A stretch of 64,000 nucleotides of DNA from Acidimicrobiia bacterium (GTDB lineage: Bacteria > Actinomycetota > Acidimicrobiia > Spongiisociales > ZC4RG35): NCBI GenBank assembly GCA_036375695.1, contig DASVBU010000021.1, positions 27,329-91,328 on the forward strand. The letters run 5' to 3'. Below the pieces are notes generated by a model. That model was not told the DNA's origin and did no database searches. It saw nothing but the letters and a program-made list of their open reading frames with translations. The translations under genes and the position numbers were made by a program. The first letter of the stretch is position 1. Each line of letters starts with the position of its first letter. This document shows positions 20,991-50,859 of this stretch, in pieces.

Positions 20991-22004
20991 TCAGCCCGGG
21001 AAGACGGTCACGGCGTCGACGTCTACCTCCACCCGGTCGCCCGGGCTGAAGTGGTCGCCAGGGCCGAGCCGGGACCGGATCAGGGTGCCGTCGTCGAACG
21101 CCACCGTGACCAGCTGGTCGTGGCCGAAGAACTCGCGGCCCTTCACCACCGCCTTGCCCCTGGGGTCGGCGACCAGACGGACCGACTCCGGCCGGACCAT
21201 GACCCAGACCTCCCCTTCGCCGTCGCCCCGGAAGGCGCCGAGCACCGACTCGACACTCCCCCCGTGACCCCTCCCGCGGATGAAGTTGGCGTCGCCGATG
21301 AACTGGCCCACCCAGGCGCTGGCGGGCGACCAGTACAGCTCCTGCGGCGTGGCCATCTGGACGATGCGCCCGCGGTTCATCACTGCGACCAGGTCGGAGA
21401 TGGAGAGTGCCTCTTCCTGGTCGTGGGTGATGAAGAGGGCGGTGGTGCCGGCACCCCGGAGGATGCTGATGATCTCGCCCCGCACGCGTGACCGCAGCGT
21501 GTCGTCGAGGTTGGAGAACGGCTCGTCGAGGATGAGGACGTCGGGACGAGGGGCCATGGCCCGGGCCAGGGCGACCCTCTGTTGCTGACCGCCCGACAAC
21601 TCGTGCGGGTAGCGCTTCCCCAGACCGGTGAGACCGACCACCTCGAGGATCTCGTCGACCCGCGCCTCCCGGTCCTTTGCCTTGGCCAGGCCGTACCCGA
21701 CGTTGGCCCGCACGTCCATGTGCGGGAAGAGGGCGTAGTCCTGGAGGACGACCCCGACTCTTCTCTCTTCAGGCGGGACGAAGACGCCCGGCCCGACGAC
21801 ACGGCGGCCACGGATGTCCACGGTGCCTGCATCGGGGCGGTCGAAGCCGGCGAGGACCCGGAGCATGGTGCTCTTCCCGGTGCCCGACGGACCGAGGAGG
21901 GTGACCACGGCGCCGGCGGGCACGCTGAGATCGCATCCGTCGAGCGCCACGGTCTCGCCGTAGCGCTTGGTGATCCCGACCGCGTCGATGACCAGTTCAG
22001 TCAT
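20991..22004 (-). CDS. ABC transporter ATP-binding protein with TOBE domain, iron(III)/polyamine type (FbpC/PotA-like)
   Basis: Walker A GPSGTGKST, LSGGQQQRVALAR signature, Walker B LILDEP; C-terminal TOBE-like domain. Confidence 0.8.
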   Translation of the reverse strand: MTELVIDAVGITKRYGETVALDGCDLSVPAGAVVTLLGPSGTGKSTMLRVLAGFDRPDAGTVDIRGRRVVGPGVFVPPEERRVGVVLQDYALFPHMDVRANVGYGLAKAKDREARVDEILEVVGLTGLGKRYPHELSGGQQQRVALARAMAPRPDVLILDEPFSNLDDTLRSRVRGEIISILRGAGTTALFITHDQEEALSISDLVAVMNRGRIVQMATPQELYWSPASAWVGQFIGDANFIRGRGHGGSVESVLGAFRGDGEGEVWVMVRPESVRLVADPRGKAVVKGREFFGHDQLVTVAFDDGTLIRSRLGPGDHFSPGDRVEVDVDAVTVFPG

Positions 22005-23604
22005 GGATGTCCTTGACCACGAAGAAGTACAGGGGCGCCGCCGACACCAGGATCAGGGCCAAAGCGGCAAAGCTGGCCTGACTGTAGAAGACCTCGTTGG
22101 TTGCGCTCCAGATGCGCACCGGGAGCGTGTCGAACTCCGTGGGACGTAGCAGGAGCGTGGCCGGCAGCTCCTTCATCACCGACAGGAAGACCAGAGCCGC
22201 CCCCGCCAGCGCGGAGCGCCGCATCATCGGGATGGTGACCCGCCGCATCGTCGCCCATTGGCCCATGCCGAGGCTGCGGGACACCTCCTCCAACGCGGGA
22301 CCGATCCTCCTCATCCCGCTCTCCACCGCGGCCAGGGCCTGAGGCAGGAACATCGCCAGATAGACGATGATCAGCAGGGGGATCGTCTGGTAGATGGGGC
22401 GGAACCACTGGACGGTGAGGACCAGGAAGGCGAGACCGACAGCCAGGTGGGGAAGCGAGTAGGTGAGCCACGGGATGCCCTCGAGCACCCGGGTGACCGA
22501 GTTGCGGTGCCTGGTGGCGAGGATCCCCAGTGGCACCGCCGCCGCGCCCACCACCAAGGCCGCCACCGCCGAGAGCCCGATCGACCTCAGTGTCTGCGGC
22601 ACCACACCGAGAAGGGAGGCACCCTGGGCGATGCCGCGGACCATCCACCACACCATCGTCGAGATCGGCAGGAGAAGGGCCAGGAGGGCCAGGAGCCCCA
22701 GAAACGAGTGGGCCACAACCCGGCCGGCGGGGCTCAGGTTGTGCAGCGAGACCCGACGCGCCGGTCGTGCGCCGTAGAGGGCGGCCCGGCCCCGGGCCAC
22801 CTGCTGCAAGACCACCAGGACCAGAGCACCGGACGAGAGCACACCCGCCAGGAAGAGGGCAGGGCCGGGGTCGAGACGGCCCGCGAACTGGGTGTAGATG
22901 GTGCGGGTGAACGTGTCGAACCGGAGCATCGAGACCGCCCCGAACTCGGCGATGACGTAGAGGGCCACGAGCAGGGCGCCGGAGGCGAGGGCAGGCCGAA
23001 GTTGCGGTATGACCACTTTCCGGATGGTGCGCCACCGCCCGGCGCCCAAGCCCCGGGACACGTCCTCCAGAGCCGGGTCGAGCCGACGTAGCACCGGCAC
23101 CGCCAGCAGGTGGATGAAGGAGAAGTTCCACAGGCTCAGCGCGGCCCACGCCGCCCAAAAGCCCTGGAACACCGGGAGACCCGGGAGGCCGAGCTTCTCG
23201 AGGAAAAGGGTGAGGGTGCCCCCGTTTCCCGATGCCGACAGCATCGCCAGGGCGCCGACATAGGAAGGGATGACCAGGGGCAAGGTCATCAACGTCGACC
23301 AGATCCGGGAGCCACCGAGATCGGTCCGGGTCGTCAGCCAGGCGGTGGTCAGACCGAGCGCCAACGTGGTGGCGGTCACGGTCACCGTGAGCAGACCCGT
23401 CGAGACCGCCAGTTCCCGGAGCCTCTCTCCGGTGAAGCCGCCGGCGTCGAACCCGCCCGGTCGCAGCACCACCCACAGGAGGTAGACGATGGGGATCGCC
23501 GCCGGGAGGACAACGGCGACCCCGGCCACCCAGAGGGCGGCCGGGGCCTCGGGTCGCCTGGTTGTCCCGGCGGGCGTCGTCAGACGATGGGCGAGTTCGA
23601 CCAA
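21997..23604 (-). CDS. iron(III) ABC transporter permease, two fused permease domains (FbpB-like)
   Basis: 535 aa, about 12 TM; sits between the FbpC-like and FbpA-like genes. Confidence 0.8.
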   Translation of the reverse strand: MVELAHRLTTPAGTTRRPEAPAALWVAGVAVVLPAAIPIVYLLWVVLRPGGFDAGGFTGERLRELAVSTGLLTVTVTATTLALGLTTAWLTTRTDLGGSRIWSTLMTLPLVIPSYVGALAMLSASGNGGTLTLFLEKLGLPGLPVFQGFWAAWAALSLWNFSFIHLLAVPVLRRLDPALEDVSRGLGAGRWRTIRKVVIPQLRPALASGALLVALYVIAEFGAVSMLRFDTFTRTIYTQFAGRLDPGPALFLAGVLSSGALVLVVLQQVARGRAALYGARPARRVSLHNLSPAGRVVAHSFLGLLALLALLLPISTMVWWMVRGIAQGASLLGVVPQTLRSIGLSAVAALVVGAAAVPLGILATRHRNSVTRVLEGIPWLTYSLPHLAVGLAFLVLTVQWFRPIYQTIPLLIIVYLAMFLPQALAAVESGMRRIGPALEEVSRSLGMGQWATMRRVTIPMMRRSALAGAALVFLSVMKELPATLLLRPTEFDTLPVRIWSATNEVFYSQASFAALALILVSAAPLYFFVVKDIHD

Positions 23605-23614
23605 TTCGTCGTCC

Positions 23615-24643
23615 TCAGCTCAGACCGACCTCCGCGATCAGGTCGACGGCGCTGTCCAGGTAGTCGGCCAGATCCGAGAGGTTGATGTCGGGGCCCCGCA
23701 ACTCCGAGAGTGGCTTCTGGCCCTCGGGTGTGAAGTCGCCTTCGATGAGACCGTACTCGTGGAGGTTCTCCGAGAAGTGCCGCTGGGCGTCCTCGGCGAG
23801 CAGGTAGCGGATGAACTCCAGCGCCGCCTCCTTGTTGTCCGAGGGCTCGAGGACACCCACGCCGGTGGCCGCCACCAGGGCGCCCGGGTCACCGGGGGCC
23901 AGGTAGTGGTTCTTGGCGGTGGCCGAGCCCTGGTCGTCGATCAGGCCGAGTAGGTAGTAGTGATTGACCAGCCCGGCGTCGAGGTCGCCGGCGTCGACGG
24001 CCTGGACGATCGGGCCGTTGCTCGGGAAGATCTGGGGGTCGTTGGCGACCATTCCCTCCAGCCACTCCCGCGTCTTCTCGGTGCCGTCGACCAGTTCCAT
24101 CGCCGAGACGAAGGCTATGAACGAGGCATTGGTCGGAGCGATGCCGATGCGCCCCTTCCACTTGGGATCGGTCAGCTCATAGACGCTGGCGGGCAACTCG
24201 TCCTCGGAGACCAGCTCCGGGTTGTAGACGAGGACACGGCTCCGGCCGGTGACCCCGACCCAATGCCCATCCGCGTCGCGGTAATGCTCGGGGACCAGGG
24301 AGAGGATGTCCTCGGGGAGCTCGGCGAGCAGCCCCTCGTCACCGATTGCGCCGATCCATGCCGGGTCCTGGGCCCAGAACACGTCGGCGTCGGTGGTCTC
24401 GCCCTCGTTGAGGATCGTCGTGGCGAGGTCACTGGTGCCATCGCCGTAGCGGACCCGGACATCGATGCCGGTGTCCGCCTCGAACTCCTCGATGATCGGG
24501 GTGACGAAGTTCTCGTTCCTGCCCGAGTAGACGGTCAGCGTGCCGGACCCGAGCGTGGTGTCGGTGGACTGCTCCCCGCAAGCGGCCACCGCGACGACCA
24601 GCGCCAGGACGGCGGTCGCCAACCTGGATGTGCTTCGAACCAT
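23615..24643 (-). CDS. iron(III)-binding periplasmic lipoprotein (FbpA/AfuA family SBP)
   Basis: Start re-set to ATG at 24641-24643 (MVRSTSRLATAVLALVVAVAACG lipoprotein signal). The track's extra 47 N-terminal codons would otherwise overlap the upstream gene. Confidence 0.75.
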   Translation of the reverse strand: MVRSTSRLATAVLALVVAVAACGEQSTDTTLGSGTLTVYSGRNENFVTPIIEEFEADTGIDVRVRYGDGTSDLATTILNEGETTDADVFWAQDPAWIGAIGDEGLLAELPEDILSLVPEHYRDADGHWVGVTGRSRVLVYNPELVSEDELPASVYELTDPKWKGRIGIAPTNASFIAFVSAMELVDGTEKTREWLEGMVANDPQIFPSNGPIVQAVDAGDLDAGLVNHYYLLGLIDDQGSATAKNHYLAPGDPGALVAATGVGVLEPSDNKEAALEFIRYLLAEDAQRHFSENLHEYGLIEGDFTPEGQKPLSELRGPDINLSDLADYLDSAVDLIAEVGLS

Positions 24644-24680
24644 GACTCGCAAGGTATAAACACTATGGCCATAGTGCAAA

Positions 24681-26669
24681 TTACCGGGCGAAGCCGAGCA
24701 GGTGGAGCTCGGAGGGGAGAAGTGCCTGCGGCCCGTCCGACAGCGCCTCCTCGGGACGGGGATGGATCTCCACCATGAGGCCATGGGCGCCGGCTGCGAG
24801 ACCCGCCCGGCCCAGGGGGATGACCAGGGGTCGCACCCCGGCTGCGTGCGACGGATCCACGATCACCGGGAGATGGGTCAACTGCCGCAGCACCGGCACC
24901 GCGGCCACGTCGAGGGTGCTCCTGGTGGCGGTCTCGAAGGTGCGAATGCCTCGCTCGCACAGGATCACCTGGCGGTTGCCCTCGGCCAGTATGTACTCCG
25001 CCGCCTGGAGGAACTCCTCGATGGTGGCGCTCATACCCCGCTTGAGCAGAACAGGTTTGCGCACCTTGCCCACGGCCGACAGGAGGGCGAAGTTCTGCAT
25101 GTTGCGGGTCCCGATCTGGAGGACGTCGGCGACCTCCGCCATCGGCGCCACGTGCTCGGGCGCGAGGACCTCGGTGACGACGGGGAGCCCGTGGGCCCTT
25201 CCCGCCTCGGCGAGCAACTCCAGAGCCTCGAAGCCGAGCCCCTGGAAGCTGTAGGGCGAAGTCCTGGGCTTGAAACAGCCACCCCTCAGCACGCTTCCTC
25301 CCGCCTCCCGCGTCGCCCGGGCGCACTCCATGACCTGCGCCCGGTTCTCCACGGCACAGGGGCCGGCGATGAGGACCGGGTCGGCATCGCCGCCGATTCG
25401 GACGCCCGCCACCTCGACAACGGTGTCCCCCGTACCAGCCCGGCGCGCCAGCTTGGGGACGCCGACGTCGCGGATCGTCGTCGCCGGCGACTCCTCGGGC
25501 ACGACTCCGGTGGCCGGAGGCGCCAGGGGTCGCCGCCTGTGAGGCCGGAGGTCGGAGGACGGGTACGACCCGAGCACGCGCATGAACCGCGCCTTCCGTC
25601 CGACGCCCTCGAGCGCCCGGACCACTGCCTCGTCGGACACGTTGCCCTCGAAGTCGAGGATGAACGTCTCCTCCCAGGGGTCGTCGGGGTTGGGCCGTGA
25701 CTCCAGCTTGACCAGTGGGATGCCCTCACGGGCGAATTCCGCCAGGACCTCCATGAGGGAGCCGGGCTCGTTCCCCACCGAGAGGACGATCGTGGTCTTG
25801 ACGGGGACACCGGGTGTGACATCGATCCGCGCCCTGGAGACCGCCAGGAACCGGGTGAAGTTGTCCGGCCGGTCGGTGATCGACGGGTGCAGGACGTGGA
25901 GACCCCTGGACAACGCGGCCTCCTCCGCGGCCACGGCCGCCACGGACGGGTCGCCGAGCAGGCGGACCTCCTCGGCGGCGCCCGCCGTGTCCCAGCTGTA
26001 GACCACCTCGGCTCCGAGACCGCGCAGGAAGTCGGAGCACTGTGCAACGGCCTGCGGGTGTGCCAGGACGCGGGCGATGCCATCCAGGCTGGCGCCCGGG
26101 AGACCGATGAGCCGATGGGCCACCGGCAACCTGACCTCCCCGGTCACCGCCAGATCGTTGGCGATGAGCAGGTCGTAGACCTCGACGATGCTCCCCGACG
26201 TCGAGTTCTCCACCGGGAGGACCGCCGCGTCCGCCCGCCCCTTCCCCACCTCGGCGACGGCGTCGGCGAAGGTGGTGGTGCCCGCGAACTCGACCCCTTC
26301 GTCACCGAAGAGTCGCCGGGCGGCGACGTGACTGAAGGCACCCGGAGCCCCCTGGAAGGTCACTCGTCTCACCCTCCCGGCGAGTCGCCGCTCACCCACC
26401 AGGTCGAGCTGGACCCGGAGGGAGTCGTCGAGGATCTGCTCCCAGAGACGCACCACCACCCCTGCGTCGAGCCCGTATTCCCGCGCCACCGCCACCCGCT
26501 CGGCGAGGAGACGCTCCTCGCGCTCGGCGTCGTGGAAAGCAAGACCGTTTTGGACCTTCTCTGCGGCGATGTCGGTCACCAGACGGCGACGCTCGGCGAG
26601 CAGCTCGAGGATGCGACGGTCCACGTCGTCGATCCCGGCTCGGTGTGAATCCAATGGTGAAGGGGTCAT
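24681..26669 (-). CDS. tri-domain fusion: chorismate mutase + prephenate dehydratase (with ACT) + DAHP synthase type I-beta
   Basis: N-terminal CM_2 ([25 protein letters not shown]); PDT motifs ([11 protein letters not shown]...ENSTSGSI...); ACT ([32 protein letters not shown]); C-terminal DAHPS I-beta (IAGPCAVEN...[14 protein letters not shown]); GGGAG SD 7 nt upstream. Confidence 0.8.
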
Positions 26670-26754
26670 GGGTGTCTCCCGGGGTGATGCCCGCGACGCG
26701 GGAAATGAAGAGTGAACGAACGATGGAGAAACGGAGGGGTGTGGTGATCGGCGC

Positions 26755-26817
26755 TTACGCGCCGAAATAGGCGCGGCCGAAATAGCGATAGACGAAGCTA
26801 TGGCCGAAACGCCTCAT
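26755..26817 (-). CDS. candidate aromatic amino-acid leader peptide [20 protein letters not shown] (20 aa)
   Basis: Sits 85 nt upstream of the CM-PDT-DAHPS gene on the same strand. 4 Phe and 3 Tyr in 20 codons, all three Tyr as rare TAT codons, rare TAA stop. Followed by hairpins GGCGCGTAAGCGCC and CCCGCGTCGCGGG and a CCUCC stretch that could pair with the downstream SD. Weak SD of its own. Confidence 0.45.
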
Positions 26818-26870
26818 GAAGTCACTATAGCCCCGATCTCCCATGGTGTCTCGGGCCTAACCTCGCCCGG

Positions 26871-27890
26871 TTGACGGGAACGGCTCTCATCTCCGGAACC
26901 GGCCTGATCGGCACATCGATCGGGCTCGGGCTGCGCTCCGCGGGCTGGCAGGTCGTCGGCTGGGACCCAGATCCCGCCACTACCGCGGAGGCGCGGCGTC
27001 GCGGCGCGCTCGACCGGGTCACGGATCACCCGGAGGATCACTCGGGCATCGATCTCGTCGTCCTCGCCGGCCCTCTACCAGCGATCGTGGCCACGCTGAG
27101 GAGCCTGCGAAGCGGCGCTCTGATCACCGACGTCGCCGGTGTCAAGACCCCCGTCGTGGAGGCCGCCGCCAACCTCCCCCGGTTCGTCGGTGGTCATCCC
27201 ATGGCGGGCGGAGCCACCCGCGGCCCGGACCTCGCCTCTGCCCACCTCTTCCACGGAGCTGCCTGGGTGCTGACCACGGACGGAGCCTCGGAGGGTGACC
27301 TGGAGACCATCGAGGAGGTGGTCCGGACGCTGGGCGCAAACCCGCTGCGGATGACCGCCGACGAGCACGACTCGGCCGTCGCCCGGGTCAGCCATCTCCC
27401 CCATCTCCTCGCCGGGGCGCTGGTCAGGATCGCGGCGAGGCGGGAGGCGATGGGTCTGGCCGGAGGTGGCTTCCGCGACCTGACCCGCGTCGCCGCGTCC
27501 GACACGTCGTGGTGGCCGGACGTCCTCCAGGCAAACGCCACCGAGGTGGCTGACGCCATCTCGGAGCTGCAGGCGGACCTGGAGGGGGCCCGGGCACGGC
27601 TCCTCGCCGGCGACAAGGTCGCCATCACCGGGTCGCTCGAGGAGGCGCGGGCCATCCGATCCTCGCTCGGCGAGCACCATGCCCAGATCCGGGTCATCCT
27701 CATCGATCGTCCGGGAGAGTTGGCGCGGGTGGGACATGCCCTGGAGGCGAGCCACGCGGACGTGCGGGACATCCAGCTCCGTCATGGGGAGCACGGGGGT
27801 GGCGGCGTCCTCACCATCTCGGTCACGCCGCGGTCGGCCCGGGCACTGCGTGAGGCGCTGGAGGCCGAGGGCTTCACCCTCGAAGTCTGA
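26871..27890 (+). CDS. tyrA: prephenate/arogenate dehydrogenase (TyrA) with C-terminal ACT domain
   Basis: Rossmann N-terminus ISGTGLIGTSIGLGL; PDH catalytic region GGHPMAGG; TTG start per track; divergent from the leader/CM-PDT-DAHPS unit. Confidence 0.8.
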   Translation: MTGTALISGTGLIGTSIGLGLRSAGWQVVGWDPDPATTAEARRRGALDRVTDHPEDHSGIDLVVLAGPLPAIVATLRSLRSGALITDVAGVKTPVVEAAANLPRFVGGHPMAGGATRGPDLASAHLFHGAAWVLTTDGASEGDLETIEEVVRTLGANPLRMTADEHDSAVARVSHLPHLLAGALVRIAARREAMGLAGGGFRDLTRVAASDTSWWPDVLQANATEVADAISELQADLEGARARLLAGDKVAITGSLEEARAIRSSLGEHHAQIRVILIDRPGELARVGHALEASHADVRDIQLRHGEHGGGGVLTISVTPRSARALREALEAEGFTLEV

Positions 27891-50255: not shown

Positions 50256-50394
50256 GCCGCGGCGGTCTTCCACCCTGCCGCGGGTGCTGAGCCGATCCCA
50301 TCGTGCCAAATCAAGACCTCCCTTAATCTGCACCAACCTACCCACCATCAGCCTCAAGCAAGCCTGACCTTCGGCCCTATCGGGCGAAGAGGGA

Positions 50395-50859
50395 GTGGCA
50401 GACACTGGTGCCATGAGCACCGCAGAGCCACGAGCCGGCCTGGAACGAGCCCGCGATCGCCGTCAAGACCTTCGTCTCGCCATGGAGACCCTGGAAAAGG
50501 CCCTGGCCGCGCCGGCGGACACGGACACCTGGCTGAAAGGTGTCCGTGCCGCGGCCTCCGACCTGACCATGGCCCTCCGAGCCCACATCGACGAAGTCGA
50601 GGGGCCGCGGGGGCTGCTCGCCGAGATCCGGCTCGACGCCCCCCGGTTGTGCCACCTCGTCGACGAGCTCACCGCCGAACACCCCGAGCTGCTGCGCTCC
50701 TGCGAGCGGCTGCGACAGTCGATGGATGACGAGGCCCCCGACTTCCGCCAGGTGCGACGCCGGGCGATGAGCCTCCTCGGGCGTCTCTCCCTGCACCGCC
50801 AGACCGGATCCGACCTCGTCTACGAGGCCTACCACGTGGACATCGGCGGGGAGAACTGA
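50395..50859 (+). CDS. hypothetical protein (predicted all-helical)
   Basis: 154 aa ORF with consistent GC3 codon bias; no recognisable motif. Confidence 0.4.
   Translation: MADTGAMSTAEPRAGLERARDRRQDLRLAMETLEKALAAPADTDTWLKGVRAAASDLTMALRAHIDEVEGPRGLLAEIRLDAPRLCHLVDELTAEHPELLRSCERLRQSMDDEAPDFRQVRRRAMSLLGRLSLHRQTGSDLVYEAYHVDIGGEN

Follow-up and report, generated by a model that had tools for sequence, protein, structure and literature searches.

A small open reading frame (ORF) of 20 codons, found in a 64,000-nt stretch of DNA from an Acidimicrobiia bacterium (hereafter the window), very probably encodes a sensor of phenylalanine and tyrosine supply that is predicted to sit at the 5' end of an mRNA and is conserved across the Acidimicrobiia. 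It lies on the minus strand between a divergent tyrA and the gene that it is predicted to regulate, which encodes a fusion of chorismate mutase (CM), prephenate dehydratase (PDT), an ACT domain and DAHP synthase (DAHPS). We consider it likely, from comparison of the DNA of 30 loci, that this ORF is a leaderless regulatory leader peptide gene that conveys to the operon led by the fusion gene how much charged tRNA-Phe and tRNA-Tyr is available. The leader is real, conserved and unannotated, and its output stage is unusual. Below we describe its anatomy and leaderless geometry, the conservation of both, and its exclusive association with the fusion gene, before weighing how a stalled ribosome might act on expression.

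The leader ORF and its predicted promoter

The features of the leader and of the gene behind it are as follows.

26817..26755, minus strand: leader ORF of 20 codons, with ATG at 26817 and stop codon TAA at 26757-26755
26776..26785, minus strand: first C-UAU-UUC-GGC unit (Tyr12-Phe13-Gly14), with the aromatic pair at positions -9/-8 from the stop
26761..26770, minus strand: second C-UAU-UUC-GGC unit (Tyr17-Phe18-Gly19), with the aromatic pair at -4/-3, running into the 5' arm of hairpin 1
26824..26852, minus strand: promoter-like site, with -35 GAGACA at 26852-26847, a 17-nt spacer and -10 TATAGT at 26829-26824
24681..26669, minus strand: regulated gene of 662 residues with the Pfam domains CM_2, PDT, ACT and DAHP_synth_1, and ATG at 26669

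The leader reads ATG AGG CGT TTC GGC CAT AGC TTC GTC TAT CGC TAT TTC GGC CGC GCC TAT TTC GGC GCG TAA. Four of its codons specify Phe and three specify Tyr (7 of 20), every Tyr codon is TAT and the stop codon is TAA, just as an earlier reading made from the sequence alone (the sequence-only reading) had described. Phe and Tyr thus make up 35% of the leader codons, compared with ~3% in a rough sample of the window's long ORFs; in such a sample, TAT accounts for 23% of the Tyr codons. The leader is the sole small intergenic ORF with a Phe/Tyr bias in the 64-kb window, and no small intergenic ORF biased toward other amino acids was found there. Its C-UAU-UUC-GGC units form a direct repeat of two copies at a spacing of 15 nt.

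Between 26400 and 27200 we found a single sigma-70-like promoter site, GAGACA-17-TATAGT, and none in shuffled sequences. Its -10 element ends only 6 nt 5' of the ATG at 26817, so the ORF is predicted to be leaderless and to lack a Shine-Dalgarno (SD) sequence of its own; the transcript would begin with the leader itself. An alternative in-frame ATG, at 26844, would extend the peptide to 29 residues; this codon is upstream of the predicted -10 element and is not conserved.

Conservation of the leader across relatives

To compare the leader among relatives, we curated a set of 30 distinct loci, including the window. The loci came mainly from look-ups of exact proteins and from a scan of metagenome DNA with a degenerate core pattern. 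They belong to the Acidimicrobiia by the labels available, and their fusion proteins are 54-84% identical where full length. The metagenome scan returned 120 loci, ~30 of them with the C-rich tract described below, and all of the tract-bearing loci with enough downstream DNA precede a CM-PDT-ACT-DAHPS fusion gene. A profile scan of genome contigs with the fusion protein was swamped by single-domain DAHP synthases; it gave four leader-bearing loci (L001, L002, L014 and L003), three of which are labelled Acidimicrobiia. Homologues of the fusion protein are overwhelmingly proteins from Acidimicrobiia metagenome-assembled genomes (MAGs).

The leader ORF is in frame in all 30 loci, with a length of 20-26 codons. 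For instance, the leaders of the three closest homologues (84, 82 and 73% identity of the fusion protein) are MRRFGQSFFFAFYGRAYFGA, MRRSGQSTVPAPIGRAFAFYFYFGA and MRRSDQNFVFSFYGRAYFGA, and those of three distant relatives (54-65% identity) are MNRARRTEGLFFAFYGRGYFGA, MSRDASAIRDTRSFGAFFFRGYFGA and MKTAPTPIVSATPRRFFGFVYFGA. The predicted leaderless geometry is shared as well. A -10 element of the form NANNNT sits 6-10 nt before the ATG or GTG in 30 of 30 loci, preceded in 26 of them by TTGAC(A/G/T) at 17-18 nt. Because the -10 element is so near the start codon throughout, there is no space for an SD sequence.

The peptide varies in its N-terminal half and is fixed in its C-terminal half, which reads (F/Y)(F/Y)G-x-x-Y-F-G-A-stop. 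Counted back from the stop codon, Ala at -1 is found in 28 of the 30 leaders, Gly at -2 in 29, Phe at -3 in 29, Tyr at -4 in 28, Gly at -7 in 22, Phe or Tyr at -8 in 24 and Phe or Tyr at -9 in 27, with Arg or Ala at -10. Aromatic codons amount to 4.7 of the last 10, compared with 6% in the remaining ORF. In the alignment of the 30 leaders, insertions and deletions within the ORF are multiples of three, whereas those in the spacer can be of any length. Between the window and its relative L081 the changes are H to Q, V to F, Y to F, R to A, Y to F and F to Y. Such interchange of Phe and Tyr between relatives indicates that aromatic character, rather than a particular sequence, is what is preserved.

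The use of rare TAT codons, to which the sequence-only reading had drawn attention, stands for one position only. At -4 the Tyr codon is TAT in 26 of 28 leaders, but Tyr codons elsewhere in these leaders are TAC in 11 of 13 cases; the rare-codon signal is real but position-specific. That reading had also staked its proposal on the conservation of the ORF and of its Phe/Tyr codons, and both are clearly kept among the 30 loci. On this comparative evidence, which we regard as decisive, the leader is not a chance ORF.

One group of relatives, clade B, appears to belong to the Acidimicrobiia too, because the fusion protein of its member L106 is 98.5% identical to P0108, a protein labelled Acidimicrobiia by NCBI. 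L003 (CAVTFV010000006.1), a GTDB representative, has the same leader type as L106 and is labelled 'uncultured Acidobacteriota'; this label or the binning may be wrong.

The CM-PDT-ACT-DAHPS fusion is very common among Acidimicrobiia MAGs. Contigs with the labels Ignavibacteria, Melioribacter, Acidobacteriota, Holophagales, Chthoniobacterales, Actinomycetes and Krumholzibacteriia have it as well, at 45-50% identity. The leader ORF is absent from the fusion genes of other phyla with ≤50% identity (L004-L011).

RNA elements between the leader and the structural gene

The elements downstream of the aromatic codons are as follows.

26748..26765, minus strand: hairpin 1, with UCGGCGC at 26765-26759, loop GUAA at 26758-26755 containing the stop codon, and GCGCCGA at 26754-26748
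26732..26746, minus strand: C tract CACCACACCCCUCCG, free of G up to the closing CG, including CCCCUCCG (the CCUCC tract) at 26739-26732
26670..26754, minus strand: spacer of 85 nt from the leader stop to the structural ATG, 45% C and 19% G
26690..26702, minus strand: hairpin 2, CCCGCGTCGCGGG = CCCGC-GUC-GCGGG, 9 nt 5' of the SD, with no U run after it
26676..26680, minus strand: SD of the structural gene, GGGAG, 6 nt before the ATG at 26669

The 85-nt spacer, the two GC hairpins, the CCUCC tract and the GGGAG sequence had all been pointed out in the sequence-only reading, and all are present. Hairpin 1, which includes GGCGCGTAAGCGCC, has arms of 7 nt that are 100% complementary, and it appears in both the minimum free energy (MFE) fold and the centroid fold. 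The last codons, UUC GGC GCG, supply its 5' arm, which is paired ~93% on average in the 30 full leaders and 98% in the window. Across the 30 leaders it is the only consensus helix found by RNAalifold; 93.8% of the cells pair, and there is no covariation because the helix is nearly invariant. The loop measures 3, 4 or 5 nt and always contains the stop codon, and in L001 and L208 the arms are altered and shortened to 5 bp. Hairpin 2 is not a consensus element by RNAalifold. A GC hairpin at its position (CCCGCGUCGCGGG in the window) is found only in the closest relatives L081, L082 and L084, with different sequences. An SD of the GGAG/GAGG type precedes the structural start by 6-10 nt in all relatives.

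The other element shared by the family, the C tract, starts 2-5 nt past the end of hairpin 1; its consensus is yACC(Y)CACC(Y)CCGC, and its alignment columns are nearly invariant. Its predicted probability of being unpaired is 0.91 in the window and 0.73 on average, and shuffled versions of the tract stabilize the fold more than the real one (-3.6 versus -2.7 kcal/mol, p = 2e-4). Because the tract avoids pairing with the ORF and is predicted to be unpaired, it looks selected to remain single-stranded. The spacer as a whole is rich in C and poor in G: the first 26 leaders have spacers of 63-94 nt with C fractions of 0.36-0.57 and G fractions of 0.12-0.23, and the four leaders added later have spacers of 72-84 nt. 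The best 78-nt stretch of the window's spacer has a C/G ratio of 2.69, within the top 0.05% of all stretches of the 64-kb window on both strands.

Several side observations concern these elements. The most C>G-skewed 78-nt stretch of the window (C/G 4.1) is at 50295-50372 on the plus strand, in an AT-richer intergenic region just 5' of a plus-strand gene with its start near 50414; this genome may generally favor 5' regions that are rich in C and poor in G. The C-tract motif is not over-represented elsewhere in the window, and neither is the hairpin pattern, so a regulon within the window was rejected. The sequence of hairpin 2 and its surroundings (AUUUC-CCGCGUCGCGGG-CAUCACC, 26681-26707) resembles that of hairpin 1 and its surroundings (AUUUC-GGCGCGUAAGCGCC-GAUCACC, 26741-26770) as a diverged copy would, and this likeness, together with a 15-nt duplication of CTATTTCGGC, suggests that the leader took shape through local duplication. 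Past hairpin 1, the RNA of the window and of L081 reads GAUCACC...CCUCC(G)UUUCU (26732-26750 in the window), similar to the 3' tail of 16S rRNA after helix 45 (GGAUCACCUCCUUUCU). The similarity is not general, as other clades have 1-3 extra nt and CCCCC.

How the leader might act on expression

In the mechanism that we favor, transcription would start at or within ~3 nt of the ATG at 26817, and a 70S ribosome would begin translation as the 5' end emerges. Within the last 11 codons it would meet two aromatic pairs with a Gly after each (Y12-F13-G14 and Y17-F18-G19), and a shortage of Phe- or Tyr-tRNA would slow the reading of these pairs, at -9/-8 and -4/-3. The second pair would abut the stable hairpin that is predicted to hold the stop codon in its loop. 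When Phe- and Tyr-tRNA are plentiful, the ribosome would finish and depart, the hairpin would refold, and a C-rich, G-poor single strand would be exposed. When they are scarce, the ribosome would be parked on the aromatic pairs, where it would occupy the 5' arm of the hairpin and adjoin the C tract. Of this account, the sensing part is well founded; that stalling raises expression is what we infer from the logic of the pathway and from the precedents of pheL and aroR.

For the output in the window's clade we tentatively propose Rho-dependent premature termination, lessened by a ribosome held near the end of the leader; by analogy with known systems this is a possible reading, with somewhat less than an even chance of being correct. 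Rho would load on the C tract and the spacer, and a ribosome at the leader end would hinder its loading. We favor Rho because what remains in this clade by way of conserved features is only the hairpin, with an unpaired, C-rich tract and spacer. C-rich, G-poor, unstructured RNA next to the stop codon of an upstream ORF (uORF), as in tnaC/speFL-type systems, is found in the window.

A number of points weigh against this account. The transcription start, the translation of the ORF and the response to Phe and Tyr are all predicted from the DNA. No mutually exclusive structures and no covariation were found in the 30 leaders, so the step from stalling to expression cannot be derived from sequence for the window's clade. 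A ribosome with the Phe codon at -3 in its A site should reach ~+4 past the stop, and the C tract starts at ~+12; shielding of a Rho utilization (rut) site would therefore be slight unless the pause falls on the stop codon. The C>G skew of the spacer is exceeded by that of another intergenic 5' region in the window, as noted above, and such skew by itself points only weakly to a rut site. Constraints on the peptide, on the codons and on the hairpin cannot be told apart behind the near-invariance of YFGA-stop, and hairpin 1 is also a DNA palindrome. A variant that we think quite unlikely would dispense with alternative RNA folding altogether. In this form of amino-acid biosynthetic attenuator, a leaderless peptide whose C-terminal end is fixed would keep the ribosome at or near the stop codon, and occupancy alone, whether through a hunger stall or through sensing of Phe/Tyr by the nascent chain, would gate Rho or another single-strand-binding factor on yACCyCACCyCCGC.

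Alternative explanations

The sequence-only reading had recognized here the classic architecture of a ribosome-stalling attenuator. In classical transcription attenuation of the trpL/pheL type, stalling at Phe/Tyr codons switches an intrinsic terminator to an antiterminator helix. The stop codon indeed lies in the loop of a hairpin whose 5' arm comes from the last codons, as in the 1:2 pause hairpin of E. coli trpL; an extra copy of UUUCGGCCGCGCC in the window can pair with this 5' arm in place of hairpin 1, and a second GC hairpin stands 5' of the SD. The parts that would make a switch are missing, however. Between 26400 and 27200 we found no hairpin with a U run behind it (the RNA continues as AUCACCAC after hairpin 1 and as CAUCACCCC after hairpin 2, neither of which is a U run). 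RNAalifold gave hairpin 1 only, an all-against-all column-pair scan found no other conserved or covarying helix, and the alternative pairing in the window needs the lineage-specific 15-nt duplication, which is absent in other clades. A cmscan of 26000-27500 against Rfam (E ≤ 10) returned only spurious matches below threshold to eukaryotic long non-coding RNAs, microRNAs and small nucleolar RNAs, with no Phe_leader or other leader family. Neither the classic architecture nor the mutually exclusive structures that it calls for were thus borne out, and we regard this mechanism as highly improbable. Translational attenuation, as in the mycobacterial Cys leaders, would need no terminator: a segment of the leader masks the SD, and a stalled ribosome unmasks it. 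We evaluated the pairing of the last 45 nt of each ORF with its own SD window, with random coding 45-mers from the same locus as controls. For L003, L101, L106, L116, L150, L172 and L207, the duplexes reach -19 to -23 kcal/mol, within the top 0-4% of the controls. In these leaders (clade B plus L207) the ORF sequence CCUCGGCGC, CUUCGGG or UUUCGGCGC is complementary to the SD-containing GCGCCGAGG, and in L150 an altered ORF (UAC UUC GGG) matches an altered SD region (CCCGAGGUAG). In the window, by contrast, the duplex has only -6.8 kcal/mol, versus -13.2 ± 2.7 for random coding 45-mers, and L081, L082, L084, L205 and L206 are likewise weaker than random (91-100% of controls at least as stable in these and the window). 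The window's MFE fold does pair GGGAG with a UUCUC in the spacer and leaves the SD only 14% unpaired, but masking a ribosome footprint in silico at -7, at -3 or at the stop did not open it (0.14-0.17 unpaired, with ~85% paired to this weak spacer partner). Over all loci, the energies of own and foreign ORF:SD partners do not differ (p = 0.16). For the window we therefore consider translational attenuation unlikely. In the sister clade the output is more likely translational, with codons 5' of and within the Phe codons predicted to pair with the SD. Because the ORF:SD duplex is strong in one clade and weak in the window's, the same sensor seems to be wired to different outputs in different clades.

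Two further explanations dispense with charged tRNA as the signal. The leader could be an arrest peptide, in which the nascent R-R/A-F/Y-F/Y-G-x-x-Y-F-G-A holds or releases the ribosome at the stop codon according to free Phe/Tyr and so gates Rho or another factor. The conservation of ~11 residues up to the stop goes beyond what richness in Phe and Tyr requires, and a ribosome at the stop codon is estimated to reach ~+13, exactly where the tract begins, which is the geometry used by tnaC, speFL and cruR (PMC12360218). A default stall released by Phe would also have the right sign for a biosynthetic gene. Yet Gly at -2 and Ala at -1 are accounted for by the hairpin arm, and the swaps between Phe and Tyr and the variable positions -5, -6 and -10 fit codon sensing. 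We also know of no likeness between the C-terminus of the leader and the arrest motifs RAPP, RAGP and TnaC, and we think an arrest peptide very unlikely. Scarcely plausible, in our view, is the absence of any translational sensor, with the palindrome TCGGCGC-N3/4-GCGCCGA serving as a repressor operator or roadblock, or the ORF encoding a small protein that acts in trans. A hairpin without covariation that is also a perfect DNA palindrome would agree with an operator, and the highly conserved C-terminus of the peptide with a small protein. But a palindrome center of 3, 4 or 5 nt and arms of down to 5 bp in L001 and L208 are easily accommodated by an RNA loop and hard to reconcile with a dimeric operator; in every leader the palindrome contains the stop codon, and the start codon is always 6-10 nt past the -10 element. 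The swaps between Phe and Tyr and the exclusive linkage to a Phe/Tyr pathway gene would be left unexplained.

Other roles for these elements were tried and rejected. The CCUCC:GGGAG pairing suggested by the sequence-only reading, in which the C tract acts as an anti-SD, does not hold across the family: duplexes between tract and SD do not exceed shuffled controls in stability (mean z = 0.04), and about half of the leaders carry CCCCC in place of CCUCC, which counts against this role because CCCCC is unable to pair with the A of GGAG. A long terminator-like stem between the C tract and G-rich Arg/Gly codons was discarded, as shuffles stabilize it more, its registers differ by clade and the tract is predicted to be unpaired. 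Read-through and translation of the C tract do not agree with the sequences either; the window has UAAG where others have UAG, and the frame is not kept. The ORF as an anti-SD in all members is ruled out for the window's clade and is not significant overall.

Neighboring genes

Pfam confirmed the CM-PDT-DAHPS gene and the divergent tyrA named by the sequence-only reading, and added an ACT domain in both.

26871..27890, plus strand: tyrA, prephenate dehydrogenase with an ACT domain (Pfam), TTG start at 26871

The divergent tyrA is kept in L081, L082, L084 and L205-L208. The contigs of the closest homologues (84, 82 and 73% identity) have the same order of tyrA, oppositely oriented fusion gene, solute-binding protein (SBP) gene and permease gene. 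In the window, a -10-like TAACCT at 26858-26863 on the plus strand lies 7 nt before the TTG of tyrA, back-to-back with the leader promoter and ~5 bp from it. In L081 (2290-2320) the same CCTAACCT is followed by 6 nt and then by the GTG of tyrA. Since the site is so close to the start and is repeated in L081, tyrA is probably leaderless as well.

Synteny is also conserved 3' of the fusion gene, at 20991-24784 on the minus strand, where an SBP gene (SBP_bac_11/1/8/6), a gene for a 535-residue double BPD_transp_1 permease and a 337-residue ORF are found. With its first ATG taken as the start, the SBP ORF of the window would share ~100 nt with the end of the fusion gene. The syntenic genes may be co-transcribed with the regulated fusion gene.

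Comparison with known systems

Leader-peptide control of Phe and Tyr synthesis is textbook knowledge for gamma-proteobacteria. Like E. coli pheL-pheA, the window has a short leader packed with Phe codons directly 5' of a chorismate mutase/prephenate dehydratase gene, and pheL is known to sense charged tRNA-Phe via ribosome stalling (PMC11802643, PMC3082878). Unlike pheL, which has its own SD and a set of terminator and antiterminator helices, the leader of the window is predicted to be leaderless, mixes Phe with Tyr codons and has no U-tailed terminator, no alternative helices and no Rfam match. Its regulated gene also carries DAHP synthase, so that a single controlled gene fuses the first shikimate step with both steps of the Phe branch.

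In Actinobacteriota, the leader cases known to us from the literature are aroR (aromatic) and trpL of C. glutamicum, ilvB1 of mycobacteria and the mycobacterial Cys small ORFs (sORFs). A survey from 2005 reported no RNA regulatory structure 5' of Phe/Tyr genes in Actinobacteria (PMC1262725), and a full-text literature search gave nothing that joins 'Acidimicrobiia' and 'leader peptide'. The sequence-only reading had called such attenuation poorly documented in high-GC Gram-positives; the survey agrees with this, whereas aroR and the Cys sORFs are known cases. The leader peptide aroR (Phe-Tyr-Phe) precedes aroF, a gene for DAHP synthase; it was reported in 2014 and is described as acting by transcription attenuation that is induced under Phe limitation (Neshat et al. 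2014, in PMC11802643). As far as that description goes, both are actinobacterial Phe/Tyr leaders before a DAHP synthase operon. They differ in that aroR belongs to Actinomycetes and precedes a stand-alone DAHPS gene, whereas the Acidimicrobiia leaders end in a fixed YFGA-stop hairpin followed by the C tract, a contrast drawn from the published description of aroR.

The leaderless polycysteine sORFs of mycobacteria are first cistrons rich in cognate codons and without an intrinsic terminator, and there a stalled ribosome prevents a duplex between the sORF and the ribosome-binding site (RBS) (Canestrari et al., bioRxiv 10.1101/834739). The Acidimicrobiia leaders resemble them in their predicted leaderless geometry and in the lack of a terminator, and the ORF:RBS duplex matches the clade B relatives well, but an sORF:SD duplex is absent in the window's clade. 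Furthermore, what the Cys sORFs are known to share is mainly their codon content, while the Acidimicrobiia leaders share the end of the peptide, the hairpin and the tract.

With the leader described here, a class that is little studied and largely uncultured gains a widely conserved leader family, and the leader, as an unannotated small gene, is relevant to the annotation of MAGs. In M. tuberculosis, Rho and translated uORFs reportedly shape premature termination, and intrinsic terminators are reported to be rare (bioRxiv 10.1101/2022.06.01.494293; PMC12360218). With its predicted leaderless start, near-invariant peptide end, stop codon inside a hairpin, unpaired C tract and lack of a terminator, the leader offers a compact case of attenuation in a setting where Rho may prevail and intrinsic terminators may be few. 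In tnaC, speFL and cruR, Rho termination is gated by a uORF whose stop codon is followed by pyrimidine-rich unstructured RNA, and ribosome occupancy decides whether Rho loads (PMC12360218). Those systems respond to a free ligand through the nascent peptide, and the genes under tnaC and speFL are catabolic or encode decarboxylases. In the present leader, a hunger stall at -4/-3 would shield the tract only marginally. The window nevertheless has, as they do, a stop codon beside C-rich unpaired RNA, and it is by this analogy that we assign Rho a possible role. Gating by occupancy alone, if true, would bring the logic of tnaC and speFL to an anabolic operon in Actinobacteriota.

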